Positions 1 to 32,140 of a stretch of DNA of 37,286 nucleotides are shown one piece after another. The translations under genes were made by a program, and so were the position numbers. Position 1 is the stretch's first letter. Each line of letters opens with the position of its first letter. The DNA comes from an uncultured bacterium. GTDB taxonomy: Bacteria; Lernaellota; Lernaellaia; Lernaellales; Lernaellaceae. The stretch spans positions 1 to 37,286 of the forward strand of contig CAZHPN010000040.1 in NCBI GenBank assembly GCA_964534375.1, written 5' to 3'. A model generated the notes under the pieces. That model did not search any database. It was not told the DNA's origin and saw only the letters and a list, made by a program, of their open reading frames with translations.

Positions 1-151
1 CGCTTCGCCCGATGACGACGCTTCGCCCGATGACGACGCTGCGCCCGACGACGACGCTGCGCCCGACGACGACGCGGCGCCGGATGACGACCAGTCGCCA
101 GCCCATCGCCTTGGCGGCGGAGGCCAGGCCAGCGGCGGCTGCGGCTGTTGA
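1..151 (+). CDS. 3' end of a gene (partial): Asp-rich linker ending in SGGCGC-stop
   Basis: Frame starting at nt 2 reads ASPDDDASPDDDAAPDDDAAPDDDAAPDDDQSPAHRLGGGGQASGGCGC then TGA at 149-151. Same Asp-repeat style as other genes here. Not in the ORF track because it has no start in the window. Confidence 0.85.
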   Translation, partial: ASPDDDASPDDDAAPDDDAAPDDDAAPDDDQSPAHRLGGGGQASGGCGC

Positions 152-2988: not shown

Positions 2989-4473
2989 ATGAAGTTCCGA
3001 ATCTTTTCCTCGCTGGCGCTGGCGCTGTTTCTGGCGTTGTTCGCCGGCTCGCTGGCATCGTGCGGCGGCGCGGCAAGTTCGAGCAACCGCGCGGCCGACG
3101 ACGACAATGACGATGACACCGTCAGCGTTGACGTCTTCGCGGATCAACCCGGCGGGACGTCAACCGGGCTTCACGGATCGGCCGGCGAGCGGTTGATCGT
3201 CAAGGCCAGCGGCACGGTCGATTTGGGCGTCGCCGGCCACGACGTGCCGCCGGGCGGCCTGCCCTCGATCTGCGGCCAGGGCTGCCCGAACGTCATCGGC
3301 CATCTCGGGGCGTTGACCGGCCGGGTCGAACTCGTCGAATCGCGCGCGGGAACATCCGGTTGCATTTTTGAAGTCGGCGCAAGTTTCGACGGCCCGCTGC
3401 CGTGCTCGGGCGCTTTGACGCTGCTGGTCGACGACAACAATTACGCGGGCAATTCGGGTGAATTTCACGCCGTCGTGTCGCTTCAGCCGGTCGCCGACGA
3501 TGACGACGACAATGACGACGATACGGTTTTCTCTTGGTCGGCGATGACGAGCGGGACGGGGCTGGGGTTGGAAGGCGTTTGGGGCAGCTCGCCCTCGGAT
3601 GTGTTTGTCGTGGGATTGCCCTCGTCCGTCGGGCCGGGCCCAATTCTGCATTACGACGGTTTCACCTGGTCGGCGATGGCGAACGCCACGACCTCGTATT
3701 TGAGCGGCGTCTGGGGAAGCTCTGCCACGGACGTGTTTGCCGTGGGATCAAGCACGCAAGGCACGGAGACCGCAGTCTCCGTGATTTTGCATTATGACGG
3801 TTCGTCGTGGTCGCCGATGACGCTGCCGGAGGATGCGAAGGCGTGGCTGGCCGGCGTCTGGGGAAGCTCGCCGACGGACGTGTTCGCCGTCGGCTACAAC
3901 GCGTCGCCGTATGTCGAGATCTTGCACTATGATGGTTCCGAGTGGACGACGATGCCGCCGGGCACGAGCGCCCTTATCTACTTGAACGGCGTCTGGGGAA
4001 GCTCGGCGACGGACGTCTTTGCCGCGGGCTATGACGACGCCAATTTCGACGTCACGATCTTGCACTATGACGGTTCGTCGTGGTCGCCCATGACGAGCAG
4101 TGCGACCGGGAAATTGTTCGGCGTCTGGGGAACCGCTGCCACCGACGTTTTCGCGGTGGGCGACGACGACAGCCCCGAGGCCGGCGTGATCTTGCACTCG
4201 GATGGTTCGTCGTGGACGGAAATGGCGAACGTTCCCGCCGCGAATTGGACGTTGCGCGGCGTTTGGGGAAGTTCCGGCGATGACGTTTTCATCGGGGGCG
4301 AAGCCTTCGATCCGTCGTCAATTGGGATCATGTTGCACTACGATGGCGCTTCGTGGTCCGTGATGACCCTGCCGAGCGCGACGACGGCGGGGTTGTACGG
4401 CGTCTGGGGATTCTCCGCGACCGACGTGTTCGCCGTGGGCGGCGGGGGAACGATCCTGCACTACGGCCCGTAA
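2989..4473 (+). CDS. Lipoprotein: Asp-rich linker, LecA/PA-IL-like domain, second Asp linker, 7-repeat beta-propeller
   Basis: Lipobox LASC after a hydrophobic leader; GGAG RBS; STG..ASG..GAL.G..VG..G.L.L.VDD.NY.GNSGEF pattern resembling PA-IL-like domains; seven VWGSSxxDVFAVG...ILHYDG..W repeats. Confidence 0.8.
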   Translation: MKFRIFSSLALALFLALFAGSLASCGGAASSSNRAADDDNDDDTVSVDVFADQPGGTSTGLHGSAGERLIVKASGTVDLGVAGHDVPPGGLPSICGQGCPNVIGHLGALTGRVELVESRAGTSGCIFEVGASFDGPLPCSGALTLLVDDNNYAGNSGEFHAVVSLQPVADDDDDNDDDTVFSWSAMTSGTGLGLEGVWGSSPSDVFVVGLPSSVGPGPILHYDGFTWSAMANATTSYLSGVWGSSATDVFAVGSSTQGTETAVSVILHYDGSSWSPMTLPEDAKAWLAGVWGSSPTDVFAVGYNASPYVEILHYDGSEWTTMPPGTSALIYLNGVWGSSATDVFAAGYDDANFDVTILHYDGSSWSPMTSSATGKLFGVWGTAATDVFAVGDDDSPEAGVILHSDGSSWTEMANVPAANWTLRGVWGSSGDDVFIGGEAFDPSSIGIMLHYDGASWSVMTLPSATTAGLYGVWGFSATDVFAVGGGGTILHYGP

Positions 4474-4689: not shown

Positions 4690-7053
4690 ATGAAGACGAC
4701 GTGTTGGCCTTTCGCTTTCTTTCTGGCCGCTATTCTGGCGTTGATTCTCCTGGCCGCGTGCTCGTCCGGCAGCAGTTCCGGCAACGGCGCCGCGGACGAC
4801 GATGACAACGACGACAACGACGCCAGTCCGACCGACGACGACGCCAGTCCGACCGACGACGACGCCTCGCCGGCGGACGACGATTCCTCGCCCGTCGACA
4901 TCGTCGATTACGTCGACCCGCTGATCGGCACGGGCAATTTCGGCATCGGCGTGGCCTCGTGCTATCCGGGGCCGAGCGCGCCGTTCGGCATGATGGGCCT
5001 CAGCCCCGACACGACGTTCTTCGGCCTGATCGTCGATTCGTTCCATTGCGCCGGATACTATTATCCGGACCCGCAAATCCGCGGCTTCACGCACACCCAC
5101 ATGCAGGGCACCGGCGTCCCGGATTACGGCAACATTTTGATCATGCCGATGAAGGCAAAACCTGCCGCGCCCATCGGCGAACCCACCTTCCGCAGCAAGT
5201 TCTCGCACGACAACGAGACGGCCCAGGCGGGCTACTACAGCGTGGTGCTCGACGATCCGCAGGTCTTCGCCGAATTGACCGCGACCGACTGGGCGGCGAT
5301 GCACCGCTACACCTGGCAGGGCGGCGGCGAACCGTACGTCGTGGTCGATCCGTCGTACGGCATCCTTCCCAAATGGGTCAACAGCGCGACGGTCGCCATC
5401 GACGCCTCCAACCAGACGGTCTCGGGCGTGAGCAACTTCTCCGGCGGCCTGACCGGCGGCCATCCGGGCGGCACGAACGTCTACTACGTCGTGCAGTTCT
5501 CGCAGCCGTTCGCCGCCTACGGCACGTGGACCGGCGGCGAGCCGACCGACGGCAGCGTCTCGGCGGCAGGGACCGACGTCGGCGCGTATCTCGGCTTCGC
5601 GGCCGGCGGCCAGCCGTTGCTGATCCGCGTCGGCATCAGTTTCCAGAGCCTCGCGCAGGCGCAGGCGAACCTGGCCGCGCGGGCGCCGAATTGGGATTTC
5701 GACGGCATGATGAACGCGACGCGCGACGCCTGGCGGCAGTACCTTGGCAAGATCGAGGTCAGCGGCGGCTCGCTGTCCGATCGCCGCGTGTTTTACACGG
5801 CGCTCTACCACGCGGGCCTGATGCCGCACGACTGGACGGAGACGAACGGTCAGTACATGGGCTTTGACGCCCAGGCCCACGACGCCGGGGCGCGGCAGTA
5901 CTACACGGATTTCTCGCTGTGGGATACGTTCCGCACCTTCCATCCGCTGCTGACGCTGCTTGACCCGGTCCGCACCGCGGATTTCATGCAGTCGCTGACG
6001 TTGATGTACGAACAGGGCGGCTCGATGCCCAAGTGGCCGGCGGGCATGGCCTACACGGGCTGCATGGACGGCACGAGCGCCGATATCGTGCTCGCGGACG
6101 CTTATCTGAAAGGCATCCGCAATTTCGACTACGCGACGGCCTACGAAGGCTGCTACGCGCACGCGACGGGGCCCGTGCCCAACGACGGCCGCGACGGACT
6201 CGATTCCTACATCTCGCTCGGCTACATTCCGGCGGACGAATATCAGAAGGGCCTGAGCTACACGACCGAATATTGTTACGACGACTCGGCGCTCTCGGCC
6301 TGGGCGACGGCGCTGAACAAGCCCGACGACGCGGCGATGTTCCTCGCGCGCAGCAAGAATTACCGCAACTATTGGGATTCATCGACCGGGTTCCTGCGGC
6401 CGCGCCTCGCCGACGGCACGTGGGTTTCGCCGTTCGATCCGGTCGATATCCTCGATCCGTATTACACCGAAGGCGACTCCTGGAATTACACATTTTTCGC
6501 GCCGCACGACGTCGCGGGCCTGGCCGCGCTGTTCGGTTCCCCCGCGGCGCTGGTGGAAAAGCTGAACTACGCCTTCGAGATGAACGTGCCGTTCCAGTAT
6601 TTCGATTGGGCGCCGGCGGCGTATGTCTGGCTCGGCAACGAGCCGTGCCTGTTCCACCCGTTCATCTTCGCCGAGGCCGGCCGGCCCGACCTGACGCAGA
6701 AGTGGAGCCGCTGGGCGTCGGCCACGAAGTACCGCGACTTTGTCGGCGGCCTGCCGGGCAACGACGACGCGGGCACGATGTCGTCTTTTTACATCTTCTC
6801 CGCGCTGGGCTTTTTCCCGCAAGCCGGCTCGGTCAAGTACGTGCTCGGCAGCCCGGTCTTCGACGGCGCGGTCCTGCACTTGCCCAACGGCGACCTCAAG
6901 ATCACCGCCGCGAACAACGGACCCAACAACGTCTACGTGCAATCCGCGACGCTCAACGGCGCACCGTTGACGACGCCCCTGTTCACGCACGACCAAATTG
7001 CGAACGGCGGCACGCTGGAATTTGCGATGGGGCCGCTGCCCGCCGGGCAGTGA
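4690..7053 (+). CDS. GH92 family alpha-mannosidase, lipoprotein with Asp-rich linker
   Basis: YVDPLIGTG, PFGMMGLSPDT, GFTHTHMQGTG, FYTALYH, SLWDTFRT, EGDSWNY, GNEP and PGNDDAGTMSS motifs; lipobox LAAC; ATG 4690 with a GGAG RBS. Confidence 0.93.
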   Translation: MKTTCWPFAFFLAAILALILLAACSSGSSSGNGAADDDDNDDNDASPTDDDASPTDDDASPADDDSSPVDIVDYVDPLIGTGNFGIGVASCYPGPSAPFGMMGLSPDTTFFGLIVDSFHCAGYYYPDPQIRGFTHTHMQGTGVPDYGNILIMPMKAKPAAPIGEPTFRSKFSHDNETAQAGYYSVVLDDPQVFAELTATDWAAMHRYTWQGGGEPYVVVDPSYGILPKWVNSATVAIDASNQTVSGVSNFSGGLTGGHPGGTNVYYVVQFSQPFAAYGTWTGGEPTDGSVSAAGTDVGAYLGFAAGGQPLLIRVGISFQSLAQAQANLAARAPNWDFDGMMNATRDAWRQYLGKIEVSGGSLSDRRVFYTALYHAGLMPHDWTETNGQYMGFDAQAHDAGARQYYTDFSLWDTFRTFHPLLTLLDPVRTADFMQSLTLMYEQGGSMPKWPAGMAYTGCMDGTSADIVLADAYLKGIRNFDYATAYEGCYAHATGPVPNDGRDGLDSYISLGYIPADEYQKGLSYTTEYCYDDSALSAWATALNKPDDAAMFLARSKNYRNYWDSSTGFLRPRLADGTWVSPFDPVDILDPYYTEGDSWNYTFFAPHDVAGLAALFGSPAALVEKLNYAFEMNVPFQYFDWAPAAYVWLGNEPCLFHPFIFAEAGRPDLTQKWSRWASATKYRDFVGGLPGNDDAGTMSSFYIFSALGFFPQAGSVKYVLGSPVFDGAVLHLPNGDLKITAANNGPNNVYVQSATLNGAPLTTPLFTHDQIANGGTLEFAMGPLPAGQ

Positions 7054-7081: not shown

Positions 7082-8116
7082 TTATTGGGCCAGCAGCGGC
7101 GCCCCGTGCACGCCGAGGCTGATGCGCCACACCTTCGGACCCCAGGTCTCGGTGACGTAGATGGAACACGGGTCGTAGTTCGCGCCGCGGCCGAAGGCGA
7201 TCGACGCCGGCGACTCCATCCCGGAGCCGACGACCGTTTGCGAGCCGTCCGCCAGGTCGATGCGCACGATCTGGCCCAGGAAATTTTCCATGATGTAAAG
7301 CCCGCCTTTTTCGTCGAGCCCGGCGCCGTCGGGCAGGGCGGCCGCGGGCAAGTGGGCGATGGTCGTGAAGCCCGTCGCGACCCCTGCGGCGGTCAGATCG
7401 ACGCGATACACGGGGCTCGTAATCGGGACCGTGCCGGCCACGTACAGCGAGCGCCAATCGGCCGTGAACACCATGCCGTTGGGCGCGAGCGGGCCGTCGA
7501 TCCAGTGCGACACCTTCCCGTCGAGCGTCACCTCGTAGATCGTCGCCGTGAAGTTGTCGGAAACCAGCAGCGTGTCCCACGGCGTGTACGCGACGAAGTT
7601 CGGGTTGTCGATGCCGCGCGCGAGCAGCGTCAGGTTGCCGTCCATGTCGAGCCGCCACATGGCGCCGTCGTCGATGCCAGGCAGGGAACTGGCGCCGAAG
7701 TCGCACACGTACATCACGTCGTCCGGGCCGAACGCGAGGCCGACGGCGTGCGTGACCTTGGCGATCATTTCCCACGTGCCGTCGGGGTGCACGTGCGCGA
7801 CGCCGGTCGTGGCCCCGACGAACAATTCGCCCGTTGACGAAAAGCCGATGCCCTCCGTGCCCGAGAAGCCTTCGGCGACGACGGCCTTTTCGCCGACGGG
7901 CAGGTCGGTCCAGCAGGCCGCGTCATCGTCGTTGTCGTCGTCGTTGTCGTTGTTGTCGTCGTTGTCATCGTCGTCGTCGGCCGCATCGTCGTCGGCCGCG
8001 GCGCTGGCGTTGCCGCCGCTCTTGGCGCACGACACGCCGCCCAGCACGAGAAGCAAGCAAAGAAGCGAAAGCGACCGGCAAGCCAATTTCACGGGGATTC
8101 TCCTTGATTTTCTCAT
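7082..8116 (-). CDS. SMP-30/gluconolactonase/LRE-like beta-propeller lipoprotein with Asp-rich linker
   Basis: TEGIGF, PNGMVF and PDGAGLDEKGGLY motifs typical of SGL six-bladed propellers; lipobox GVSC; poly-Asp tract. Confidence 0.82.
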   Translation of the reverse strand: MRKSRRIPVKLACRSLSLLCLLLVLGGVSCAKSGGNASAAADDDAADDDDDNDDNNDNDDDNDDDAACWTDLPVGEKAVVAEGFSGTEGIGFSSTGELFVGATTGVAHVHPDGTWEMIAKVTHAVGLAFGPDDVMYVCDFGASSLPGIDDGAMWRLDMDGNLTLLARGIDNPNFVAYTPWDTLLVSDNFTATIYEVTLDGKVSHWIDGPLAPNGMVFTADWRSLYVAGTVPITSPVYRVDLTAAGVATGFTTIAHLPAAALPDGAGLDEKGGLYIMENFLGQIVRIDLADGSQTVVGSGMESPASIAFGRGANYDPCSIYVTETWGPKVWRISLGVHGAPLLAQ

Positions 8117-8862: not shown

Positions 8863-10404
8863 ATGAAACGCGGCCAGCGCTTTTTGCCGTTCGTGTTGGC
8901 GACGGCCTTGCTCGCCTGCGCCATTGCCTGCCGCGGTTCCAGCGGCAGCGACGGCGGCCGAGCGGCGAGCGTGAGCGACGACGATGCGTCGTCGAACGAC
9001 GATGACGACGATGACGACCACGTGTTGCCCGACGACGATCAGTCTCCGGACGATGACGATAACGACGCATTTGCCTGCAATGTCGCCCACCCCGATTCGA
9101 CGGTCGGTTTGATCTCCTGCCGGCCCGGCGCCTTCGGCGGTTACACGCTGTTCGCGCCGGCGGTGGCGAACACGGTGTATCTCATCGACATGTTCGGCCA
9201 CGTCGTCAACGCCTGGACCGGGCCCTACTGGCCGGGGTTGTCCGTTTATCTGCTCGAAGACGGCCAACTGTTGCGCACGGGAAACACGATCAACGAGAAT
9301 TTCGACAGCGGCGGGCAGGGCGGCGTCGTCATGCTGCAAGACTGGGATGGCGCGATCGCGTGGAGTTACCTCGTGTCCGACGCTCACGTCTGCTCGCACC
9401 ATGACGTTCGCCGGCTCCCCAACGGCAACATCTTGATGATCGTCTGGGAAAAGAAGACGCCGGCCGAGGCCGCCGCGGCGGGCCGCGACCCGAATTCGCT
9501 GCCCGGCGACGAACTGTGGCCCGATTACTACGTCGAGATTACGCCGGAGGGGACGGACGGCGCCAAAGTCGTTTGGGAATGGCACGCGTGGGACCACCTC
9601 GTGCAAGATTACGATCCGGCGCAGGCGAATTATGGCGTCGTCGCCGACCATCCGGAATGGATCGATGTCAATTACGGCACGCCGCGGCAAACCGATTGGC
9701 TGCACACCAACGGCATCGATTACAACGCCCAGTACGATCAGATTCTCGTGAGCGTCCGCAATTTCAGCGAAGTGTGGGTGATCGACCACAGCACGACGAC
9801 CGCCGAAGCGGCGACGCACAGCGGCGGCGTGCGGGGCCGCGGCGGCGACCTGCTCTACCGCTGGGGAAATCCGGGCGCTTATCGGCAGGACGGCGCGCCG
9901 CGCGACCTGTACTACCAGCACAACGGCCAATGGATCGCCCCTGGTTTGCCGGGCGCCGGCCATCTGCTCGTGTTCAACAACGGCGTCGGTCGCCCGGCCG
10001 GAAATTATTCGAGCGCGGACGAGTTCGCGCCCGACGTGAACGCCGACGGCAGCTATCCGGCGCCCGATCCGACGTACGGGCCCGAGGGCCTGAGCTGGAC
10101 GTTCGTCGATGCGGTTCCGGCCGACATGTTTTCGGCGTATTACTCCGGCGTTCAACGCCTGGCCAACGGCAACACGTTGATCTGCGTCGGCGGAACCGCG
10201 GTGTTCATGGAGGTGACCGCCGCCGGGGCCGTCGTTTGGCAATACGTCAGCCCCGTCACCGACGCCGGCGTTGCGCAGCAGGGACAACACCTCACCGGGG
10301 GCGCCAACACCTCGTTCCGCGCGAACCGCTATCCGCCCGATTACCCGGGCTTTGTCGGCCAGAATCTGACGCCCGGCCCTTGTTTGGTCCCGCCGTGCAA
10401 CTGA
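8863..10404 (+). CDS. Arylsulfotransferase (ASST) family lipoprotein with Asp-rich linker
   Basis: GYTLFAP, HHDVRRLPNGNIL, WEWHAWDH, DWLHTNGIDYN, GDLLYRWGNP, QH and SGVQRLANGNTLI motifs; lipobox AIAC; ATG 8863 with a GGAG RBS. Confidence 0.88.
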   Translation: MKRGQRFLPFVLATALLACAIACRGSSGSDGGRAASVSDDDASSNDDDDDDDHVLPDDDQSPDDDDNDAFACNVAHPDSTVGLISCRPGAFGGYTLFAPAVANTVYLIDMFGHVVNAWTGPYWPGLSVYLLEDGQLLRTGNTINENFDSGGQGGVVMLQDWDGAIAWSYLVSDAHVCSHHDVRRLPNGNILMIVWEKKTPAEAAAAGRDPNSLPGDELWPDYYVEITPEGTDGAKVVWEWHAWDHLVQDYDPAQANYGVVADHPEWIDVNYGTPRQTDWLHTNGIDYNAQYDQILVSVRNFSEVWVIDHSTTTAEAATHSGGVRGRGGDLLYRWGNPGAYRQDGAPRDLYYQHNGQWIAPGLPGAGHLLVFNNGVGRPAGNYSSADEFAPDVNADGSYPAPDPTYGPEGLSWTFVDAVPADMFSAYYSGVQRLANGNTLICVGGTAVFMEVTAAGAVVWQYVSPVTDAGVAQQGQHLTGGANTSFRANRYPPDYPGFVGQNLTPGPCLVPPCN

Positions 10405-16164: not shown

Positions 16165-16187
16165 TTAATGCGACCCTTTTTGAGGCG

Positions 16188-17609: not shown

Positions 17610-17671
17610 TTGAAACCTCGGCAACATGCCGCAATTTTCGCTATCCGAATTCTGCGGCCTTTTTCGAATCG

Positions 17672-19075: not shown

Positions 19076-19139
19076 CGGGCGATTCTGGTGGAATCGCGCG
19101 CGGGTTTCAAGGCGCACCATGGCGGCCTGCCGCGAACGC

Positions 19140-19173
19140 AAAACGGCGCGGCGGTTTTGCGCCGCCGCGCCGT
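19140..19173 (-). terminator. Probable intrinsic terminator
   Basis: 12-bp stem ACGGCGCGGCGG/CCGCCGCGCCGT with a 7-nt loop, followed by TTTT on the minus strand, just after the 19216 stop. Confidence 0.65.
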
Positions 19174-19215
19174 CGTAGTCAAAGAAACCGAATCGCCGAA
19201 TTCCGCTCCGGCCGG

Positions 19216-20325
19216 CTAATTACGAATGCAACGCACGTACTCATTGTCGGTGACGGAGTTGTAGGTGACTTGCCCCGTGGTGAAGTCGACCTGCCACCCG
19301 TTGCTCGTGGGGTTGTCGGCATCCAATTCGGACGACCAATACAACCCGGGGTTGCCGCCGATCGCCGCCGGCCAGTAGGCGCCGACCGGCGTCGCGGTGT
19401 TGCCCATGCTGGAGCAACCGCCGCACGGGGAGTTGTCGCAACTCTCGTTCAGGCACGTGTCCGTCACGGTGCAGGAACCGCCGGTGACCGTGGCGGCGCA
19501 GCCCTGGATCAGGGTGCGAAGCTCCGAGATCGTCGGCAACCGCCAACCGGTGTAGCCGGCCCAGGTCAAGCCCGAGCAGTACGTCCCCGCGCCGCCCTGG
19601 GTTGCCTGAAGGTTCGCCGCCCCGACCGTGCCGCCGTTCTGCCACATGTGGCCGGTGGTCGTATCGGTCCACACGGTTTGCACCGGGGGAACCGTCCCGC
19701 CGCGCACGCAGATGGCGGAGTAGTTGTCGGTGAGGGAGTTGTACGTGATTTCGCCCGTGGTGAAGTCGACTTCCCACCCGTTGCTGGTGGGGTCCGTTTC
19801 GTCGCCCACGGACGACCAATAGGCGCCGACCGCGGCCGTGATCGCCGCGGGCCAGTAGGCGCCGCCCGCCCCCGGACCGGTCAGACTGCCGCAGCCGCCG
19901 CACGGGGAGTTGTCGTAAACTTCATCCAGACCATTGTCCGTCACGTTGCAGGAGCCGCCGGTAATCGTGCCGGGGCACCCCCGGATCAAGCTGCGAAGCT
20001 CCGTGATCGTCGGCAACCGCCAACCGCTGGCGTAGCCGGCCCAATTCAGGCTGGTGCAATAACTCGCCGCGCCGCCCTGGCCAAACGAAGCGGTCGACGC
20101 CCCGACCGCCGACCCGTTCTGCCACGTCAACCCGGTGGTCGTGTCGGCCCAGACGCTTTCCCCCGCAACCGGCGAGGAATCGTCGTCGGCCGGCGAAGCG
20201 TCGTCGTCGGACGTGTCGTCGTCGGCGCTGCTGGAGCTGCTGGCCGTGGCGCCGCAGGCAATGGCGAAATAGATCGAGGCCGCGAGCAATAACATAAGCG
20301 GTAGCAACCAATACATTCTTTTCAT
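19216..20325 (-). CDS. Lipoprotein with Asp-rich linker and two tandem DUF1566 (Lcl-like) domains
   Basis: Lipobox AIAC; two copies of W.DTTTG..WQ..YC..L.WAGY..WRLPTI.ELR.LI..YWSS..W.VDF..G..C.R. Confidence 0.87.
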   Translation of the reverse strand: MKRMYWLLPLMLLLAASIYFAIACGATASSSSSADDDTSDDDASPADDDSSPVAGESVWADTTTGLTWQNGSAVGASTASFGQGGAASYCTSLNWAGYASGWRLPTITELRSLIRGCPGTITGGSCNVTDNGLDEVYDNSPCGGCGSLTGPGAGGAYWPAAITAAVGAYWSSVGDETDPTSNGWEVDFTTGEITYNSLTDNYSAICVRGGTVPPVQTVWTDTTTGHMWQNGGTVGAANLQATQGGAGTYCSGLTWAGYTGWRLPTISELRTLIQGCAATVTGGSCTVTDTCLNESCDNSPCGGCSSMGNTATPVGAYWPAAIGGNPGLYWSSELDADNPTSNGWQVDFTTGQVTYNSVTDNEYVRCIRN

Positions 20326-20669: not shown

Positions 20670-21695
<1,026 letters not shown>

Positions 21696-21707: not shown

Positions 21708-23108
21708 TCAGCACCCGCATCCAGACGAGGCGTTCGCGTGTTCCGCACGGTGGATGCCCGGGGACGAATCATCATCGTCGTCGCCTGGCGACTCATCGTC
21801 ATCACTGGGCGTTGAGTCGTCGTCGTTGTCGTCGTCATCATTGTCGTCATCGTCATCCGCCGGCGAAACGTCATCGTCGTTGCCGCTGTCATCGTCGTTG
21901 TCATCGTCATCCGCCGGCGAAACGTCATCGTCGTTGCCGCTGTCATCGTCGTTGTCATCGTCATCCGCCGGCGAAACGTCATCGTCGCTGCCGCTGTCAT
22001 CGTCGTTGTCATCGGTGCACACGCCGCTGACGCACGACCAGCTTTCCGGGCAAGTCACACAGGGGATCCCGCCTTGGCCGCAGTTCGACGGATCGAGCCC
22101 CGATTCGCAGTCCGCGCCCGAACAGCAGCCGCCGCAATTCGACGAATTGCAGGGCTGCACGCAGGCGCGGTCGATGCAATTTTCCCCGTTGACGCAGTTC
22201 ACGCAGGCCGCGCCGCCCGGGCCCCCGCACCAAGAGTCATCCGTTCCCGGCCGGCAATAGAGGCCATTCTCGCAACAGCCGTCGGGGCAACTGGCCGCGT
22301 CGCAGCCGCATAGGCCGCCATCGGCGGTTGGAAGACACGCCGACAACAGCGGCCCGCACGCGCCGCAGGCGGCGCCGCCCGCCCCGCACAGGATGTTGCT
22401 TTGATCGGCGAAGGCGACGCACACGGCGCCATTGCAGCACCCGCTCGGGCAAATGGCCGGCGAACACGGCGTCTGGCAAACATTGGCAATGCACTGTTGC
22501 CCCGCGGGGCACGTTTGACAGGTCTGCGCATTGAAGCCGCAAGCGTTGTCGTCCGTGCCAGGCAGGCAGCCTTGCCCGCCGGCGTCGCAGCAGCCGTAGG
22601 GGCACGTCGCTTGGGTACATGGGCCCGTCGTGCAAACGCCCAGATTGTAGCCGCAGCCCTTTCCCTCGCCGGCGCAGTTGGTGCACGGCCCGGTGTCGAC
22701 ACCGCAGTAGCGGTCGCCTTGGAATTGGCGGCATTCGTCAAACGCATCGCAACAACCGTCATTGCAACCGACCGTGCACGGCACGCCCGCCGCGCAAACC
22801 TGCTGCGGGCCGCAGTAGTAGCCGTTTGCCGCGCAATTGGTGCACGCCATTCCCTGGATGCCGCAGACATCATCCGCCGTGCCGAGCTGGCAAGCGCCGT
22901 TCGCATCGCAACATCCCCACCAGCAATTTTCCTCGCGGCAATCCCCGGCGCGTCCGCGGGACGGCGCCGCCAGACTCCACGGGACCGCCGCCCCGGCCGC
23001 CGTTGTCATCCGCGTGGCCTCCAGCGCCTCTGCCGGTGAGCCGATTTGCAGCACGACAGCGATTCCAATTGCGAAAATTGCCGCCGCCATTGCCACATAT
23101 GCCTTCAC
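21708..23108 (-). CDS. Secreted Cys-rich repeat protein with Asp-rich tail ending in SSGCGC-stop
   Basis: AGGAGG RBS and GTG start; signal peptide with an AEA-type cleavage site and no lipobox; six ~50-aa repeats of 10 Cys each; three 18-aa Asp repeats; ends ASSGCGC. Confidence 0.85.
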   Translation of the reverse strand: MKAYVAMAAAIFAIGIAVVLQIGSPAEALEATRMTTAAGAAVPWSLAAPSRGRAGDCREENCWWGCCDANGACQLGTADDVCGIQGMACTNCAANGYYCGPQQVCAAGVPCTVGCNDGCCDAFDECRQFQGDRYCGVDTGPCTNCAGEGKGCGYNLGVCTTGPCTQATCPYGCCDAGGQGCLPGTDDNACGFNAQTCQTCPAGQQCIANVCQTPCSPAICPSGCCNGAVCVAFADQSNILCGAGGAACGACGPLLSACLPTADGGLCGCDAASCPDGCCENGLYCRPGTDDSWCGGPGGAACVNCVNGENCIDRACVQPCNSSNCGGCCSGADCESGLDPSNCGQGGIPCVTCPESWSCVSGVCTDDNDDDSGSDDDVSPADDDDNDDDSGNDDDVSPADDDDNDDDSGNDDDVSPADDDDDNDDDDNDDDSTPSDDDESPGDDDDDSSPGIHRAEHANASSGCGC

Positions 23109-23499: not shown

Positions 23500-25986
23500 T
23501 CAGCGGGCGGGTTGCCCAGCCGTCTCGTTGATGGTCGGCAGGCGCTTGCCGTCCCAGAGGCCGTGGGTCAGCGCGTACTGCTGCGCCAGGCGGATGCTTT
23601 TCAGGTACGACGCGCGCGCCTCGGCGGCGTCTTCCTCGTCGCCGGCGGCCGCCGCATACGAATCGACCGAATACTGCGCCGGCCACGGCACGCCCGGCTT
23701 CATGATCGCCCACAGCATTTCGCCCAGCCGCTGCACCTGGTCCGGCACATCCCAATTCTGGTGCGCCGCGTAGTCGCCGAGCGGAGCGCCCGCCGCGTTG
23801 TACGCCAGCGGGGTCGGATTCGGGACGGTGGCGAACGTCGCCAGGTCGGGCGTCGTGGTGAAGGCGTCGTACATGGGGCTGGTGTTGTCGTCGTAAACGG
23901 TCAACGACGGCAGGCCGAGGATCATCTCGATCGTCAGCCAGAGGGACGACATCGAATACAACACGTGCGAGGTGTACCCGTGTTTGGCGTAGGGCGAGAT
24001 CGCCAAACAAATGCTGCGGTGCGGATCGATGTGATCGGCGCCCGATTGCGGGTCGTCCTCGATCACGAAAACGGCGGTTTCCGCCCAATGGTCGCTGTGC
24101 GTGATGTAGTCGAGCAACAGGCCCAGGCCCGCGTCGTTGTCGCCGACGTAATATTGCGGCGTCGGCGCGCCGGCCTGCGAGCCGAGGGTGTGGTCGTTCG
24201 GCAGGCTGATGTACACCAATTGCGGCCAGACGCCGGCTTTCCACTCGCGGATGATTTCGTTCGCCTTGGTTACGTCGGAGATTTGCTGGTTCCAGAAGCC
24301 GTACAGGAAATCGACCTCCGGCGCGATCTCGGCGAAATCGCCCATCGTCAGCACTTCGCCGTACACGCGAAATGTGACGTTGTTTTTCAGCATCGTTTCC
24401 CACAGGCTGCCTTTGCGGCTGCGCGTCGCGGGCTCGGCGTTCGACAGCGGTTGGCGATTGAACGTCATCGCCCAGTTCTTCTCCTCGTAATCGTTGGAAT
24501 ACATCAGCGACGCCCACATGTGGCCCTGCAGACTGATGTTGGCCTCGGAATAATAGTTGTCCATGTTCGTGAATTGCGTCGCGAGCGCGTGCGTGTTGGG
24601 CGTATAGGCCTGGCCGAATTCGAGCAGCGACGGGTCGGCTTCCGTGCCCGTCATGTCGCCGAGCACTTCATCGTAGGTCTTGTTTTCCTTCATGATGAAC
24701 ACGACCCGTTTGATTTGCTGCGAAGGCACGCCGCGTTGCGTCGGAATCGGGCTGTCGAACGACAACGATTCCCAAAAGAGCGACGTGCGCGTCAGATTCG
24801 CGTTGACCGCCGTCGTCCATTCGGCGAGTTGCGCCGCATTCGGAAGGTCGATCTTCTGCAGCGTGCCGCCCATGTCGACCCCCGGCGGCGGCTCGGCGCC
24901 CGGAATGCCGCCGCCCTTGCCGTTGCCGACGTACAGCACGCTGCGGGCGGAATCGACGGCGACGGAACTCGGGTAGTAGCCGGCCGGGATCATGCCGGCG
25001 ATCGCGCCGCCGGCCGCATTCATCACCACCACCGCGTTCAGGCCGGCGGCGGCGACATACAGCGTGGCGCCGTCGCTCGCAACGGCGACATCCACCGGCG
25101 AGGTCGCCGTCATCGCCGCGCCGTCGAAGATGGGGTATTCCGCGATTTCCTGCCGCGTCGTCACGTCGATCGCGCTGACCGAGTCGCCGTCGGCGTTGGC
25201 GACGTACAGCCGCGTCCCGTCCGGCGACAACGCCAGGCCCGCCGGATGCGAGCCGACGGTCACTTCGGCCACGCGCTGGGCCGTGGCCACGTCGATAATC
25301 GTGACCGACGAGCCGCCCCAGTTCGAAACGTACGCTTCGGCGCCGCTCGCCGAGAGCGCGATGGCGTACGGATACATATTCGTCGGCGCGACCGCGGTCG
25401 CGGCGCCGGTCGCCAGGTCGTAGATCTGCACGCCCGAGCCCCAGGAATCGCAGACCAGCAATTTCGTTTCGTCGGGCGTCACCGCCAGGCCGGCGGGGAT
25501 CAATTGGCTGCCGATCGTTTGCAGCAGCGCCGGCGAGCCGGTGCTGATGTCGTATTCGTAGACGACTTGCGCGCCGCCGCCGCTCACCCACAACTTGTCG
25601 CCGGCGGCATTCGCCGCGAGGCCGACGAACGTCGCGGGAACCGCGAAATGATCCACCTCGGCGAAGGTCGCGCCGTCGATGATGGTCACGCCCGGGCTGC
25701 GCAAGGACGAGATCGCCAGATTCCCGTTGGGCAGGGGCAAAATCTTGCTGGGGTAATCCAAGACGTTCCGCATGGAGCCGACCGGCGAAATCGCCCGGCC
25801 GTTGACCATGATGATCGAGCCGTCGCCGGCGTCGCCGGGCTTCGCCAGCGCCGTGGCCGTCGGCGTCGGGACGGCTTTGTCGCCCGCCGCCTTGGCCTGG
25901 TCGGAGGAAGCCGGCTTGCCGTTTCCATTGGCGCAAGCACTGAGGGCGAGGCCCAGAACAACCGCATAAACCAGCCATCGACGCAT
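23500..25986 (-). CDS. Bifunctional YncE/YVTN beta-propeller plus phosphoesterase (alkaline phosphatase superfamily) lipoprotein
   Basis: VGSHPAGLALSPDGTRLYVANADGDSVSAID YVTN repeats; IKRVVFIMKENKTYDEVLGD, LPNDHT and EDDPQSGADHID motifs; lipobox LSAC. Confidence 0.9.
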   Translation of the reverse strand: MRRWLVYAVVLGLALSACANGNGKPASSDQAKAAGDKAVPTPTATALAKPGDAGDGSIIMVNGRAISPVGSMRNVLDYPSKILPLPNGNLAISSLRSPGVTIIDGATFAEVDHFAVPATFVGLAANAAGDKLWVSGGGAQVVYEYDISTGSPALLQTIGSQLIPAGLAVTPDETKLLVCDSWGSGVQIYDLATGAATAVAPTNMYPYAIALSASGAEAYVSNWGGSSVTIIDVATAQRVAEVTVGSHPAGLALSPDGTRLYVANADGDSVSAIDVTTRQEIAEYPIFDGAAMTATSPVDVAVASDGATLYVAAAGLNAVVVMNAAGGAIAGMIPAGYYPSSVAVDSARSVLYVGNGKGGGIPGAEPPPGVDMGGTLQKIDLPNAAQLAEWTTAVNANLTRTSLFWESLSFDSPIPTQRGVPSQQIKRVVFIMKENKTYDEVLGDMTGTEADPSLLEFGQAYTPNTHALATQFTNMDNYYSEANISLQGHMWASLMYSNDYEEKNWAMTFNRQPLSNAEPATRSRKGSLWETMLKNNVTFRVYGEVLTMGDFAEIAPEVDFLYGFWNQQISDVTKANEIIREWKAGVWPQLVYISLPNDHTLGSQAGAPTPQYYVGDNDAGLGLLLDYITHSDHWAETAVFVIEDDPQSGADHIDPHRSICLAISPYAKHGYTSHVLYSMSSLWLTIEMILGLPSLTVYDDNTSPMYDAFTTTPDLATFATVPNPTPLAYNAAGAPLGDYAAHQNWDVPDQVQRLGEMLWAIMKPGVPWPAQYSVDSYAAAAGDEEDAAEARASYLKSIRLAQQYALTHGLWDGKRLPTINETAGQPAR

Positions 25987-28291: not shown

Positions 28292-30457
28292 TCATAACGT
28301 CGGCAAACTAATCCGCGACGGATGATCGGGACCGGTCAGCACTTGCACATGGACCGGGCGCGTCGCGGTTTCGTCCGTCATCGAGCCGCCGGTGTTTGGA
28401 TTCGCCGAGAGGCCGCAGGTGGTGCTCCTGATCGTGACAAGGATGGGCGAACCAGCCTCGAAACGAAATGCGGCGACGTTGAACGGCAAGTGAATCTCTA
28501 CGACTTCGCCCGGCCGCATCGGTTCGGGCTTGGCCATCGAGTTGCGGAAGCGCAGGCGCAGGCCGACGCCTTGCCCGACCGGCCGATTCGAGCCGTCGAG
28601 CAGAACCGCGAAAATGTCGGCGTCGGGCGTGTCGATTTTGAGAAACAGGACCAATTCCGCTCGCCCCGCAACATCGAGAGGCGCGCTGAGCTTCGGGGTT
28701 TCGAAGGCCAGGCGTTCGGACAAAACATTGGGATCGCAGTAGTCGTCTTTCGCCGGGTCGAACGTATAACTGACAACCGCCTCGTTGCCTGGCTGGCTGG
28801 CGGCGAGCTTGCCGAAATGCGCCGGATGCCCCTTGGGCCGATCGATCAGGCGTACGCTGCTGCCGTCGAGAAAATACGTGTTCGTCTTGGCGGCGAGCGG
28901 CCAGCGATCCGACGTATGCCACTCGTTTGCATTCTGGACGAAGTAGTGGATCGGCGCGGCGTCAACCGCGGCCGACTCGTCCTTGAGATATCTCTTCACG
29001 TAACTGCGGATGATTTCTCCAGCCGGTCCCGGCGCGAACGGATGATTGACGGCGTCGCCATGATCGCCGGCGTGCAGGATGAACTTGTGGGCGGCCCGGA
29101 CCGATTCGCTGCACGAATTCCCGCGCAGCGCCAGGAACGTATCGAGACCATCCGAGGTATACTCGTTCTTCGCCTGCAAAGTGAGCACGGGCGCGCAGAT
29201 CCGCGCAAGTTTGCCGGTAAGGCTCCAGTTGTCCCAGTACTCCGACCGCCGGTCCATGAATGGCAAAGCCGCGCGCCACACCGGGTCTCGCTCGCCAAAT
29301 ATCGCTGTGTCCAGGTCGCGAACCGGCCGGGAATTCGTGATCGTGCGATTGTACTTGGGATCCTCCTGAAGGTTCTCGTGGCCCTTTACGAACCGATCCC
29401 ACCATACGAGTTGCCCCTTAATCATACCGTTCTGCGTCGCCGGCCAGGTCTCAAAGGCGCGGCTCGGCGCCCCATCGGCGATCACCAGTTTGACTTCCGA
29501 GGTGTCGACCGCTGCCGCCACCGCGGCGAACCCGGCGTAAGACGCGCCAAACGTGCCGACCGCGCCATTCGACCAGGGCTGCTTGGCGATCCAGCGAACG
29601 GCATCTTGCCCGTCGGCAAACTCCTGGCTCATCGGCCGCAACTCGCCCTCGGACTTGCCGGTCCCGCGAACCGCTTGGAACACAAGTGCATATCCCTCTT
29701 TCGTGAAGGGACGCCAGGCATCGAAGCCATATCCGGCATCGGGTGCGTAATGCGCGTAGTACGGCGAGCGGACGAGGAGCGTGGGCGCCTTTTGGCCGGC
29801 TGCCATCGCCGGCGGCAACACCACGTGCGTCTCGAGCCGCACGCCATCTCGCATGGGGACCATCACCGAACTCTCGTTTGGCGGCAGCGGCGGCGGCGCA
29901 ACATCGGACAATTCGATGCTGTCGAACGCCGCCTTGAACATGGGAGCGAGTTTGGGCCACGCGTCGGCAGCCGCCGCGAATTGGAAGATGTAGAACTTGT
30001 CGCCGACATGGACGCCGTACTCGATGGTCCGGTGCGGCGGCTCGACCTCGGTGGAATACTCCAAGACTGCGCCCGGCCGGCCGAGCACCGTTGTCTTTTC
30101 CAGACGCACTCGATGGTGCTTCGAACCAACCACTTTCATGATCCCCGCCTCGCGGATTTCAAGGCTGACGGCGCCCGGAAGCGCCAGTATCGAAATTCGT
30201 GGGAGGATGTCGCTCGGCGATGGGCTGAACACGAGAGCCTTGGCGCCGGGAGCGCTCTTGTCGATCCGCTGCCAGCCAACTGGGCAAAGGAACCGCACGC
30301 CGAGGGCCGCCTCCTCGCGTTGCTCCATGGCGGGATTGCCGCTCTGTTCTGAGGTCTGCGACGCGGCGGCGCCCGCCATCGCTCCGGTTCCGCATCCCGC
30401 AGCCAAGAGAACGAGGAGAGTCAGCAGCAGTCCGCAACTTGAGCTTCGCATGCGCAT
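28292..30457 (-). CDS. CocE/NonD family (peptidase S15-like) hydrolase with extra N-terminal domain; probable lipoprotein
   Basis: VMVPMRDGVRL, RSPY, RGTGKSEG, DGQDAVRWIAKQPWSNGAVGTFGASYAG nucleophile motif and a PepX_C-like C-terminus; leader ending AAGC. Confidence 0.9.
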   Translation of the reverse strand: MRMRSSSCGLLLTLLVLLAAGCGTGAMAGAAASQTSEQSGNPAMEQREEAALGVRFLCPVGWQRIDKSAPGAKALVFSPSPSDILPRISILALPGAVSLEIREAGIMKVVGSKHHRVRLEKTTVLGRPGAVLEYSTEVEPPHRTIEYGVHVGDKFYIFQFAAAADAWPKLAPMFKAAFDSIELSDVAPPPLPPNESSVMVPMRDGVRLETHVVLPPAMAAGQKAPTLLVRSPYYAHYAPDAGYGFDAWRPFTKEGYALVFQAVRGTGKSEGELRPMSQEFADGQDAVRWIAKQPWSNGAVGTFGASYAGFAAVAAAVDTSEVKLVIADGAPSRAFETWPATQNGMIKGQLVWWDRFVKGHENLQEDPKYNRTITNSRPVRDLDTAIFGERDPVWRAALPFMDRRSEYWDNWSLTGKLARICAPVLTLQAKNEYTSDGLDTFLALRGNSCSESVRAAHKFILHAGDHGDAVNHPFAPGPAGEIIRSYVKRYLKDESAAVDAAPIHYFVQNANEWHTSDRWPLAAKTNTYFLDGSSVRLIDRPKGHPAHFGKLAASQPGNEAVVSYTFDPAKDDYCDPNVLSERLAFETPKLSAPLDVAGRAELVLFLKIDTPDADIFAVLLDGSNRPVGQGVGLRLRFRNSMAKPEPMRPGEVVEIHLPFNVAAFRFEAGSPILVTIRSTTCGLSANPNTGGSMTDETATRPVHVQVLTGPDHPSRISLPTL

Positions 30458-30579: not shown

Positions 30580-32061
30580 TCAGTAGCCGTAGTGCAAGAT
30601 CAACGCGGATTGGGAGTCCGTGTCCTCCCCAACCGCGAACACGTTCGTGGGCGAGGCAGCCCAAATGCCTGCCAATTCCGCATGGTCCGTCACGCCGGTG
30701 GTCATCGACGACCACGACGAACCGTCGTAGTGCAGAATCAACGCGAGATCGGCCGTGATGTTCGCTCCCGCGGCGAACACGTCCGCGGCGGAACTGCCGC
30801 CGACGCCCCCCAACGTCGCAAAGCCCGTCACGCCGCTGGTCATCGACGACCACGACGAACCGTCGTAGTGCAGGATCAGCGCGTGAAATGAAGTCAGGTC
30901 GACCCCCACGGCAAACACGTCGGCGGCCGAACTTCCCCAAACGGCCTTCAAGCTCCCGTTGTCCGTCGTTCCGGTCGTCATCGGCGACCACGACGAACCG
31001 TCGAAGTGCAAGATCAGCGGGGAAAATGAGGTCCCGTCGTACCCCACCGCGAAGACGTCCGTGGCGGAGCTTCCCCAAACGCTGACCAACTGCGCCTCGT
31101 CCGTCAGGCCGGCGATCATCGGCGACCACGACGAACCGTCGTACTGCATGATCAGCGCGAGTCCGTCGTCCGCATCCTGCCCCACGGCGAATACGTCGGC
31201 GGCCGAATTGCCCCACACGCCGGCCAACGCCGCCTGGTCCGTCAGGCCGGTCGTCATCGGCGACCAGGACGCCCCATCGTATTGCACGATCAGCGCCGAA
31301 AACGAAGTTATGTCCTGACCCACGGCGAACACGTTCGTGGCGGAACTGCCCCACACGCAGCGCAAATTCGCCGTGTCGGTCACGCCGGGCGCCATCGACG
31401 ACCACGACGATCCGTCGTACTGCAGGATCAGCGCGAGATTGGACGTCGGGTCGTTCCCCACGGCGAACACGTTGGCGGCCGAACTTCCCCAAACCGCGGC
31501 CAGATTCCCTGAGCCCGCCATTCCGGTCGACATCGGCGACCAGGACGGCGTGGTGTCGTTGTCATCGTCGTTGTCGTCATCGTTGTCGTCGTTGTCGTTG
31601 TCATTGTCATTGTCATTGTCGTCGTTGTCGTCGTCATCATCGACGGTGTCGTTGTCGTCGTTGTCGTCGTTGTCGTCGTCATCGTTGTCATCGTCATCGT
31701 TGTCATCGTCATCGTCGACGGTGTCATTGTCGTCGTCGTCATCGACGGGCGAAGCGTCGTCATCGTCGTCCGTCGTGTCATTGTCGTCGTCGTCATCGAC
31801 GGGTGAGGCGTCGTCGTCGTCGTCCGTCGTGTCGTTGTCGTCGTCGTCATCGACGGGCGAGGCGTCGTCGTCGTTGTCATCGTCGACCGGCGAAGCGTCG
31901 TCATCGACGGGCGAGGCGTCGTCATCGTCGTCCGTCGCGTCGTTGTCGTCATCGACGGCAGAGCGGCGGCTTGAACTGCTGCTGGAACTGCCGCAGGCGA
32001 CGGCGCAGGCAAGCAACACTGCGGCCAACAGAAAAATTGGAAGCCAATTGCCCCGTTTCAT
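30580..32061 (-). CDS. Lipoprotein with very long Asp-rich linker and 7-repeat beta-propeller (paralog of the 2989-4473 propeller)
   Basis: GGAGG RBS and ATG 32061; lipobox AVAC; about 135 aa Asp/Asn tract; seven VWGSSAxDVFAVG..LILHYDGSSWS.M repeats. The ORF-track extension to 32505 belongs to the upstream pseudogene. Confidence 0.85.
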   Translation of the reverse strand: MKRGNWLPIFLLAAVLLACAVACGSSSSSSSRRSAVDDDNDATDDDDDASPVDDDASPVDDDNDDDASPVDDDDDNDTTDDDDDASPVDDDDDNDTTDDDDDASPVDDDDDNDTVDDDDDNDDDDNDDDDNDDNDDNDTVDDDDDNDDNDNDNDNDNDDNDDDNDDDNDTTPSWSPMSTGMAGSGNLAAVWGSSAANVFAVGNDPTSNLALILQYDGSSWSSMAPGVTDTANLRCVWGSSATNVFAVGQDITSFSALIVQYDGASWSPMTTGLTDQAALAGVWGNSAADVFAVGQDADDGLALIMQYDGSSWSPMIAGLTDEAQLVSVWGSSATDVFAVGYDGTSFSPLILHFDGSSWSPMTTGTTDNGSLKAVWGSSAADVFAVGVDLTSFHALILHYDGSSWSSMTSGVTGFATLGGVGGSSAADVFAAGANITADLALILHYDGSSWSSMTTGVTDHAELAGIWAASPTNVFAVGEDTDSQSALILHYGY

Positions 32062-32140
32062 CGGAATACCTCCAGCCGTCAGAAAGAATGAAATTGCGCT
32101 GGACCGAATTATCACGGAATCGAGACGCCGCGTAAAGGGG

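Follow-up and report, generated by a model that had tools for sequence, protein, structure and literature searches.

Two genes of a 37,286-nucleotide stretch of DNA from an uncultured bacterium encode proteins that end with an aspartate-rich linker, a short spacer and the residues Gly-Cys-Gly-Cys (GCGC), with the stop codon directly behind. The stretch is the whole of contig C40 of assembly G000 (6.30 Mb, 381 contigs, 64% G+C) and is referred to below as the window. We found that this bare C-terminal tail recurs in the genome far beyond chance, that it belongs to one phylum among the genomes searched, that it is never combined with the lipobox of the lipoproteins of G000, and that it is akin to the tripartite MYXO-CTERM signals encoded in the same genomes. 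We propose that the tail tags Sec-exported proteins at the C-terminus throughout the phylum, as a MYXO-CTERM signal that is made 'pre-cut', and that its Cys serves as a tether, probably through a lipid. We assign this reading a probability of about one half; the modification of the Cys, its chemistry and the final location of the tail proteins are what we infer.

A conserved C-terminal tail throughout the genome

The translation of the complete tail gene of the window, P0001, ended with ...DDDESPGDDDDDSSPGIHRAEHANASSGCGC and TGA at 21708-21710. Its N-terminus was signal-peptide-like, and its first Cys did not occur before residue 57. The second tail gene, in frame +2, ended with ...PDDDQSPAHRLGGGGQASGGCGC and TGA at 149-151; because the window is an entire contig, the gene is truncated at its edge. 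Both translations agree with the initial annotation, which had described the Asp linker, spacer and GCGC-stop on two proteins, the complete one having a signal peptide and no lipobox. CxC directly followed by a stop was found at the end of just three ORFs (open reading frames) over the six frames of the window, namely the two tail genes and a noise ORF of 11 codons.

A six-frame scan of G000 produced 52,573 stop-to-stop ORFs of at least 60 residues. Tails were selected by a high third-position G+C content, 6 or more Asp among the 80 C-terminal residues and an end of the form [GAS]CG followed by 0-2 residues. The filter passed 58 ORFs, one of which (on contig C16, ending ...SSCG) was removed as false. 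The remaining 57 tails ended with GCGC (36), GCGG (5), GCGR, GCGA and GCGS (3 each), and once each with GCGCG, GCGCY, GCGGQ, GCGGW, GCGY, GCG and ACGA. In the 51 tails that ended with GCG plus one residue, the Gly at -4, the Cys at -3 and the Gly at -2 were invariant (51 of 51), while position -1 was occupied by C (36), G (5), R, A and S (3 each) or Y (1). The Cys was thus at -3 in these 51 tails; it was at -4 in four others (GCGCG, GCGCY, GCGGQ and GCGGW) and at -2 in one. The tail had initially been described as a CxC ending. Its G-C-G part with the Cys at -3 is conserved, but the second Cys was replaced in 15 of the 51 tails; since only position -1 varies, the conserved unit is G-C-G rather than CxC.

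The spacer between the last Asp-Asp pair and the motif had a median length of 14 residues, with 12-17 residues in 50 of the 57 tails. It was rich in Ser, Ala, Gly and Pro (L, I, V, F, M and W made up 5%), and the tail is evidently disordered. An Asp-rich C-terminal region was present in 188 coding-like ORFs, and 43 of them ended with GCG plus one residue (GCGC 31, GCGG 4, GCGR 3, GCGA 3, GCGS 2); no other recurring four-residue end was in the count listed for the 188. At the DNA level, the 15-base pattern GGNTGYGGNTGYTGA, which stands for GCGC-TGA, was found 34 times in G000 compared to 3 times for the reversed control pattern.

We considered that stop read-through, selenocysteine or a frameshift could lead into a hidden membrane helix and rejected this option, as all three stop codons were used after the tails (TGA 43, TAG 10, TAA 5; long ORFs overall 1265, 591 and 462, respectively). 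Read-through or a frameshift past the 57 tails met a hydrophobic 15-mer downstream in 11 cases, and 5 of these stretches (on contigs C3, C6, C33, C36 and C40) read as the signal peptide of the next gene. For example, the in-frame continuation of P0001 is the lipoprotein signal peptide of the following gene, the agreement in frame being coincidental. A helix-plus-Arg pattern directly after the motif was seen in 0 of the 57 tails, read-through and shifted frames included. The earlier expectation that no membrane helix follows the tail therefore extends from the window to all 57 tails.

Exported cargo and exclusion of the lipobox

Contig ends cut 7 of the 57 tail proteins. Our heuristic predicted a signal peptide in all of the other 50, in accord with the expected association of the tail with signal-peptide proteins. 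A loose lipobox pattern flagged 4 tail proteins, in which the Cys was within the hydrophobic core and was followed by an AxA-type site.

Pfam families were assigned for the 50 complete tail proteins. Peptidases made up 21 of them: papain-family C1 (12), subtilases (6), neprosin (2) and C25 (1). The rest included GH123 (1), a weak GH5 match (1), DUF2961, FGE-type domains (2), Kelch, BNR/PKD (2) and FG-GAP, and 20 of the 50 had no Pfam family. Single-linkage clustering divided the 57 proteins into 27 clusters. Judged by these sequence families, the tail is a tag on unrelated cargo, predicted to be mostly extracellular hydrolases. P0001 itself matched no Pfam or NCBIfam family (NCBIfam searched to E<=1). 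It had 28 homologues including the query's own record, 10 of which ended with [GA]CGC; the two homologues with a source name were from Myxococcota and had a lipobox-like start and no tail.

Two tail proteins had an unusual composition. A 94-residue protein (C2:44219-44500, plus strand, locus L131) consisted of a signal peptide, an Asp linker, a spacer and the end ...DGCGCY, with no other domain. A pilin-like protein of 305 residues (C113:6999-7913, minus strand, locus L161) had the motif GFTLIE, a long Asp/Asn linker and the end ...HHGGCGY.

G000 also encodes 170 proteins in which a lipobox is followed by a spacer and an Asp linker. None of the 170 had the tail, and a lipobox followed by an Asp linker was present in 0 of the 50 complete tail proteins. 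In a wider comparison with a heuristic that over-calls, the tail was found in 0 of 429 lipobox ORFs versus 43 of 2350 signal-peptide ORFs (Fisher p = 0.001). The tail thus proved to be neither rare in the genome (57 cases) nor dissociated from signal peptides (50 of 50) nor combined with the lipobox (0 of 170), and the mutual exclusion suspected from the window holds genome-wide. The suggestion that the two architectures are mirror images is likewise upheld: the pair of Cys and Asp stalk is at the C-terminus of tail proteins and at the N-terminus of lipoproteins. In addition, 18 of the 57 tail proteins had cargo in common with a lipobox and poly-Asp lipoprotein at E<=1e-10; for example, a 383-residue tail protein and a 353-residue lipoprotein were 47% identical over ~290 residues. 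We also noted homologous lipobox and Asp-linker lipoproteins on contigs C35 and C47 that end with ...WYWCQ.QSYCPC, a Cys-x-Cys terminus with no preceding Asp linker.

Relation to MYXO-CTERM signals and myxosortases

In the Haft preprint (10.1101/2023.06.07.544157), the published MYXO-CTERM logo has a 'GCGC motif', the signal is given as restricted to Myxococcota, and myxosortases are reported also from Bradymonadales. Guo, Haft and Wall (PMC11980579) report that the myxosortase MrtX cleaves TraA and that the Cys residues are needed; they propose lipidation, with Lgt as the leading candidate enzyme, followed by type II secretion, on which surface display of MYXO-CTERM proteins is reported to depend.

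The phylum of G000 was sampled by 17 genomes from 12 genera and 4 families. The MYXO-CTERM model TIGR03901 was matched at its cut-off in 15 of the 17, by few proteins in each. Of the 12 TIGR03901 matches in the genome, 8 were inspected; 0 of these 8 lay at a bare tail, and the best-scoring ones were tripartite proteins. G000 has five such proteins, on contigs C3 (two), C57, C127 and C290. In relatives the tripartite form consisted of an Asp linker, GCGC or GCGGC, a helix and RRR, i.e., of the bare tail plus the parts that it is missing; an Arg-rich cluster at the very end was seen in 0 of the 57 tails. A kinship by cargo was considered and rejected: as paralogues of the tail or lipoprotein sets, the five tripartite proteins of G000 produced weak, domain-level matches to three tail proteins only and no match to the lipoprotein set of G000.

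The myxosortase core model NF040914 was over its cut-off in 12 of the 17 phylum genomes and was matched at E<=0.01 in 15. In G000 the match is a CPBP protease of the myxosortase family on contig C155 (106.2 bits compared to the cut-off of 100), a candidate processing enzyme for the tail located outside the window. This protease was nearest to MrtP and MrtC and was below the equivalog cut-offs of MrtP, MrtC and MrtX. The catalytic CPBP motifs EExxxR, FxxxH and HxxxN were invariant in 6 myxosortase sequences of the phylum, and the best 80 matches outside the phylum were mostly from Myxococcota among those with a taxon in the title.

Two further observations concern the range of these elements. 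Small Cys-containing proteins that have all parts of the tripartite signal (Asp linker, GCGGCG, helix and RREGK) are encoded in tandem at G005:C106:8900-10100 and G006:C140:8100-9300 (L030, L031), in genomes with no myxosortase-core match. Among 104 genomes outside the phylum, each from another family, NF040914 was over its cut-off in 9 (G017, G026, G034, G040, G065, G083, G098, G116 and G117), a wider range than the published Myxococcota and Bradymonadales; bare GCGC tails were found in 0 of the 9.

The tail might be a sorting tag only, recognized for transport across the outer membrane (for instance by type II secretion) or for retention, trimmed or not, and carry no covalent anchor. Such a role would fit a C-terminal element shared by exported proteins of unrelated families (57 proteins in 27 clusters; 21 of 50 are peptidases), the presence of the type II secretin GspD in G000 and the pilin-like tail protein. 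However, C-terminal export tags known so far are either tripartite or made of a folded domain, three invariant residues offer little for recognition, and the mirror relation to the lipid-anchored lipoproteins, together with the exclusivity, points to anchoring. We therefore regard a sorting role alone as quite unlikely.

Distribution among genomes

The pattern GGNTGYGGNTGYTGA was found at 6-62 sites in each of the 17 phylum genomes, with 0-3 sites for the reversed control. The matches listed use all four Gly codons and both Cys codons, which argues for selection at the protein level and not for a DNA repeat. In the 104 genomes of other families there were 0-6 sites compared to 0-5 for the controls, and all 16 sites inspected in the three highest of them were out-of-frame noise. 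The nine myxosortase-positive genomes of this group had 0-2 sites. Three Myxococcota-type genomes with a myxosortase homologue had 7, 3 and 1 sites versus 10, 6 and 2 for the control. In total 124 genomes were searched, and within this set bare tails occur in the phylum only.

The isolate fen_1099, which is among the closest relatives in terms of the phylum's myxosortase, had 45 sites compared to 2 for the control. Williams et al. (PMC9324843) equate FEN-1099 with Candidatus Lernaellota, and the phylum of the genomes studied here is probably FEN-1099/Lernaellota. A search of the tail region against 5.8 billion proteins returned the query alone, presumably through low-complexity filtering, and is uninformative on spread outside the phylum. 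Titles and abstracts on the phylum and on MYXO-CTERM described no helix-less form; the supplements of the Haft preprint could list variants.

A functionless remnant would be another explanation: MYXO-CTERM signals that lost the helix, with a vestigial GCGC on freely secreted enzymes. Tripartite forms with an Asp linker and GCGC do exist in the same genomes, and a mostly degradative cargo could work free in the medium. A vestige, however, would decay or end at random positions, while G-C-G was invariant at -4 to -2 in 51 of 51 tails, the spacer was held at 12-17 residues in 50 of 57, all three stop codons were in use (43 TGA, 10 TAG, 5 TAA) and the tail was kept in 17 of 17 genomes and 12 genera. 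We consider a remnant very unlikely.

Candidate modifying enzymes

The gene next to the C155 protease was tried as a candidate (the pair is at L005 2373-5695). The two genes overlap: that of the protease begins 4 bases ahead of the stop codon of its neighbour, which encodes an 894-residue fusion of carbamoyltransferase-N, radical SAM and SPASM domains. Orthologues of the fusion were present in 17 of 17 phylum genomes; each genome had 7-15 matches, a figure that does not count genes. The fusion and the myxosortase were on one contig in five genomes (G000, G010, G012, G015 and G016), all from family f1, and on separate contigs in the eight other genomes where both were found. Because contig sharing is limited to f1, it reflects family-level synteny and not a functional link, and the fusion was rejected as the modifying enzyme.

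The number of Lgt genes provides a weak lead. At least three matches to PF01790 were found in 15 of 17 phylum genomes, in 3 of 3 Myxococcota-type genomes and in 4 of the 104 genomes of other families; a single match was found in 80 of the 104 and, against this lead, in 6 of the 9 myxosortase-positive genomes among them. The paralogues of G000 are on contigs C111, C110 and C35. A tree of 38 Lgt sequences, made with a quick method and having several long branches, separated three old groups of paralogues, which are conserved across the phylum, and contained no clade exclusive to the phylum and Myxococcota. An extra Lgt paralogue as the Cys-modifying enzyme is thus a weak lead, which agrees with the published idea that ordinary Lgt may modify the Cys.

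Proposed explanation

We propose that the invariant Cys at -3 would be covalently modified after export, probably by a lipid as was proposed for MYXO-CTERM, so that the tail protein would hang from the envelope or the cell surface on its poly-Asp stalk. The anchored protein would be the C-terminal mirror image of the lipobox and poly-Asp lipoproteins of the phylum, with the tail Cys placed, relative to the stalk, as the lipidated Cys of a lipoprotein. The tail has no helix that a myxosortase would need to cut off, which would make this step dispensable; where a myxosortase is present, it may remove the 1-3 residues that follow the Cys, in the way that Rce1 acts on CAAX proteins. Geranylgeranylation of the kind known for Rab proteins, which the initial annotation had brought in for comparison, is not supported, as the tail proteins are exported by Sec. 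In a narrower version, the tail would be the first helix-less, CAAX-like lipid-anchoring signal of bacteria, a periplasm-facing acyltransferase (Lgt or an Lgt paralogue) would modify the Cys of the bare G-C-G-x end, and no intramembrane protease would be needed. This version we offer tentatively, as a possibility and not as an expectation.

The length of the uncharged stretch beside the Cys varied jointly in the two classes of proteins. Its medians were 15 in tails (n=57) and 12 in lipoproteins (n=170) of G000, 2 (n=9) and 3 (n=17) in G005, and 4.5 (n=10) and 1 (n=15) in G002; 19 further tails of genus g9, to which G005 belongs, had a median of 2. The genome G009 had one protein of each class only and was uninformative on this co-variation.

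A disulfide tether or a redox tip would require no lipid: the terminal Cys would bond to an envelope partner or to other tails, or C-G-C would be redox-active. In chemical terms, one exposed Cys at the tip of a flexible stalk suits such a role, 36 of the 57 tails have a terminal C-x-C, and many extracellular disulfides are plainly made by these cells, as the Cys-rich P0001 and the 12 papain-family cargos indicate. Yet the second Cys is dispensable (15 of 51 GCG-plus-one tails do without it), and the invariant flanking Gly, the identity with the MYXO-CTERM motif, the exclusion of lipoproteins (0 of 170) and the spacer co-variation would be left unexplained. This alternative is unlikely, though it has the best chance among the four rivals.

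The smallest chance goes to a metal- or mineral-binding tip, in which two Cys, with or without His, would end the poly-Asp chain. The spacer had a His in 35 of the 57 tails of G000, in 29 of them within a P-x(0-3)-H pattern, and C-x-C and poly-Asp are both metal-binding chemistries. However, the tails of genera g9 and g7 had nearly no spacer and no His; the dispensable second Cys and the lipobox exclusivity also speak against such a tip, which we hold to be very improbable. Each rival explains fewer observations than the lipid tether does.

Several points weigh against the lipid tether. Signal peptides and lipoboxes were called with home-made heuristics on six-frame ORFs. The pilin-like tail protein has an N-terminal membrane anchor and a methylation motif. 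Lgt, the published candidate enzyme, acts on signal peptides embedded in the membrane, whereas nothing tethers the bare tail to it. The spacer co-variation is effectively one contrast, of a clade long in both classes with two genomes short in both, because G005 and G002 belong to one family. Finally, in genus g9 (G005, 99% complete, and G006, 98% complete) neither an NF040914 match nor a convincing match to the C155 protease was found, and G005 had no Rce1-like (PF02517) match at all. The same two genomes had 32 and 24 GCGC-TGA sites, and 19 of 20 fetched sites were Asp-rich tails with GCGC-stop. Therefore, a myxosortase is probably not required for the tail, and protease-dependent models would fail in these genomes. 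Incompleteness of the metagenome-assembled genomes could account for the absence of the protease, but the two genomes agree.

Organization of the window

The features of the window are listed in Table 1. The gene that follows P0001 begins with ATG ATG and encodes a lipoprotein signal peptide; its distance from the P0001 stop is as first described. Eight neighbours had been described as lipobox proteins with the Asp linker. We find six neighbours with the lipobox, a Ser/Gly spacer and the Asp linker, and two further proteins with the lipobox and no Asp linker.

Table 1. Positions of the tail genes, their parts and the lipobox genes in the window.
Positions	Strand	Feature	Basis
21708..23108	-	Complete tail gene P0001, 466 aa, stop included	ORF translation
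23025..23108	-	Predicted Sec signal peptide, residues 1-28 (cleavage between ...SPAEA and LEA), no lipobox	Heuristic; cleavage site inferred
22020..22940	-	Cys-rich repeat cargo, residues ~57-363	Translation and homologues
21768..22019	-	Asp-rich linker, residues 364-447 (84 residues; DDDxSP and DDDND units)	Translation
21723..21767	-	Spacer SSPGIHRAEHANASS, 15 aa, one Glu within	Translation
21711..21722	-	G-C-G-C terminus, invariant Cys at -3	Translation and genome-wide tail alignment
21708..21710	-	Stop TGA, 12 bases ahead of the ATG of the next gene	Sequence
2..151	+	Second tail gene, 3' end	Asp linker 2-91, spacer 92-136, GCGC 137-148, stop 149-151
20670..21695	-	Lipoprotein downstream of P0001: lipobox (IATAC), Ser/Gly spacer, Asp linker; mirror architecture	
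2989..4473	+	Lipobox and Asp-linker lipoprotein	
4690..7053	+	Lipobox and Asp-linker lipoprotein	
7082..8116	-	Lipobox and Asp-linker lipoprotein	
8863..10404	+	Lipobox and Asp-linker lipoprotein	
30580..32115	-	Lipobox and Asp-linker lipoprotein, start approximate	
23500..25986	-	Lipobox protein, no Asp linker	
28292..30457	-	Lipobox protein, no Asp linker	

Two other regions of the window had features of their own. At 14749-19219 on the minus strand, the ORFs 14749-16164, 16188-18230 and 17672-19219 had similar C-termini (...RLVV/L.HA.RYL), suggesting tandem paralogues. At 347-2773 on the plus strand, an 808-residue ORF ended with ...SLGFRLARSLPK, a type of ending that was also found on several lipoproteins of the genome (...GFRLARTLP, ...GFRVARTLP).

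Comparison with known systems

If the tail is an anchor, it may be a new and simpler way of fastening proteins to the cell surface. The tag is carried by the main extracellular proteases and glycosidases of polymer degraders and therefore bears on how such enzymes are retained at the surface. As a tool, surface display would also profit from an anchoring tag this short and free of a helix. Guo, Haft and Wall (PMC11980579) raise the question of which enzyme modifies the Cys, and the bare tail offers a handle on it. Should Lgt or a paralogue be that enzyme, the tail proteins would be 'pre-cleaved' substrates provided by nature, in which the Cys modification of the MYXO-CTERM pathway is set apart from its other steps, and the membrane helix of tripartite signals would not be needed for recognition.

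The closest known system is MYXO-CTERM (TIGR03901). In both cases the signal is at the C-terminus of unrelated Sec-exported proteins, dozens per genome, and its invariant Cys lies within a Gly-rich motif that often reads GCGC (36 of the 57 tails), after a disordered linker; the genome encodes a type II secretin and a protease of the myxosortase family, and true tripartite proteins occur alongside. Unlike MYXO-CTERM, the bare tail stops 1-3 residues past the Cys with no helix or Arg cluster, does not reach the TIGR03901 model and is kept in two genomes where no myxosortase was detected. Moreover, it was not seen in the 3 Myxococcota-type genomes or the 9 further myxosortase-positive genomes of other families.

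The lipobox lipoproteins, made by Lgt, LspA and Lnt, resemble the tail proteins in a Cys among small residues ([GAS]-C-G), a spacer rich in Ser, Gly and Ala, and a poly-Asp stalk; cargo families are held in common, and spacer lengths change together. The Cys, however, is at the opposite end of the protein, and in the tail it is preceded by polar residues and not by a hydrophobic signal segment, which Lgt is known to need.

CAAX and Rab CXC prenylation also use a short, helix-less C-terminal Cys motif, with the Cys 2-4 residues from the end and variable residues past it, and an Rce1-family protease is encoded here too. In contrast, the eukaryotic process is cytosolic, while the tail proteins carry signal peptides and are exported, and the residues past the tail Cys are Gly and any residue, not aliphatic ones.

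LPXTG with sortase, PEP-CTERM with exosortase, GlyGly-CTERM with rhombosortase, and the JDVT-, Synerg- and CGP-CTERM signals are all, like the tail, short C-terminal tags on unrelated exported proteins of one lineage. All of them combine a motif with a helix and a basic cluster, whereas the bare tail is the motif alone. To our knowledge, every prokaryotic C-terminal sorting signal described so far is tripartite in this sense; in the prevailing view, the helix keeps the protein at the membrane, where an intramembrane enzyme can reach it. A tag that consists of a Cys motif only, is used on about 50 proteins per genome across a phylum and persists where no protease was found challenges this picture.

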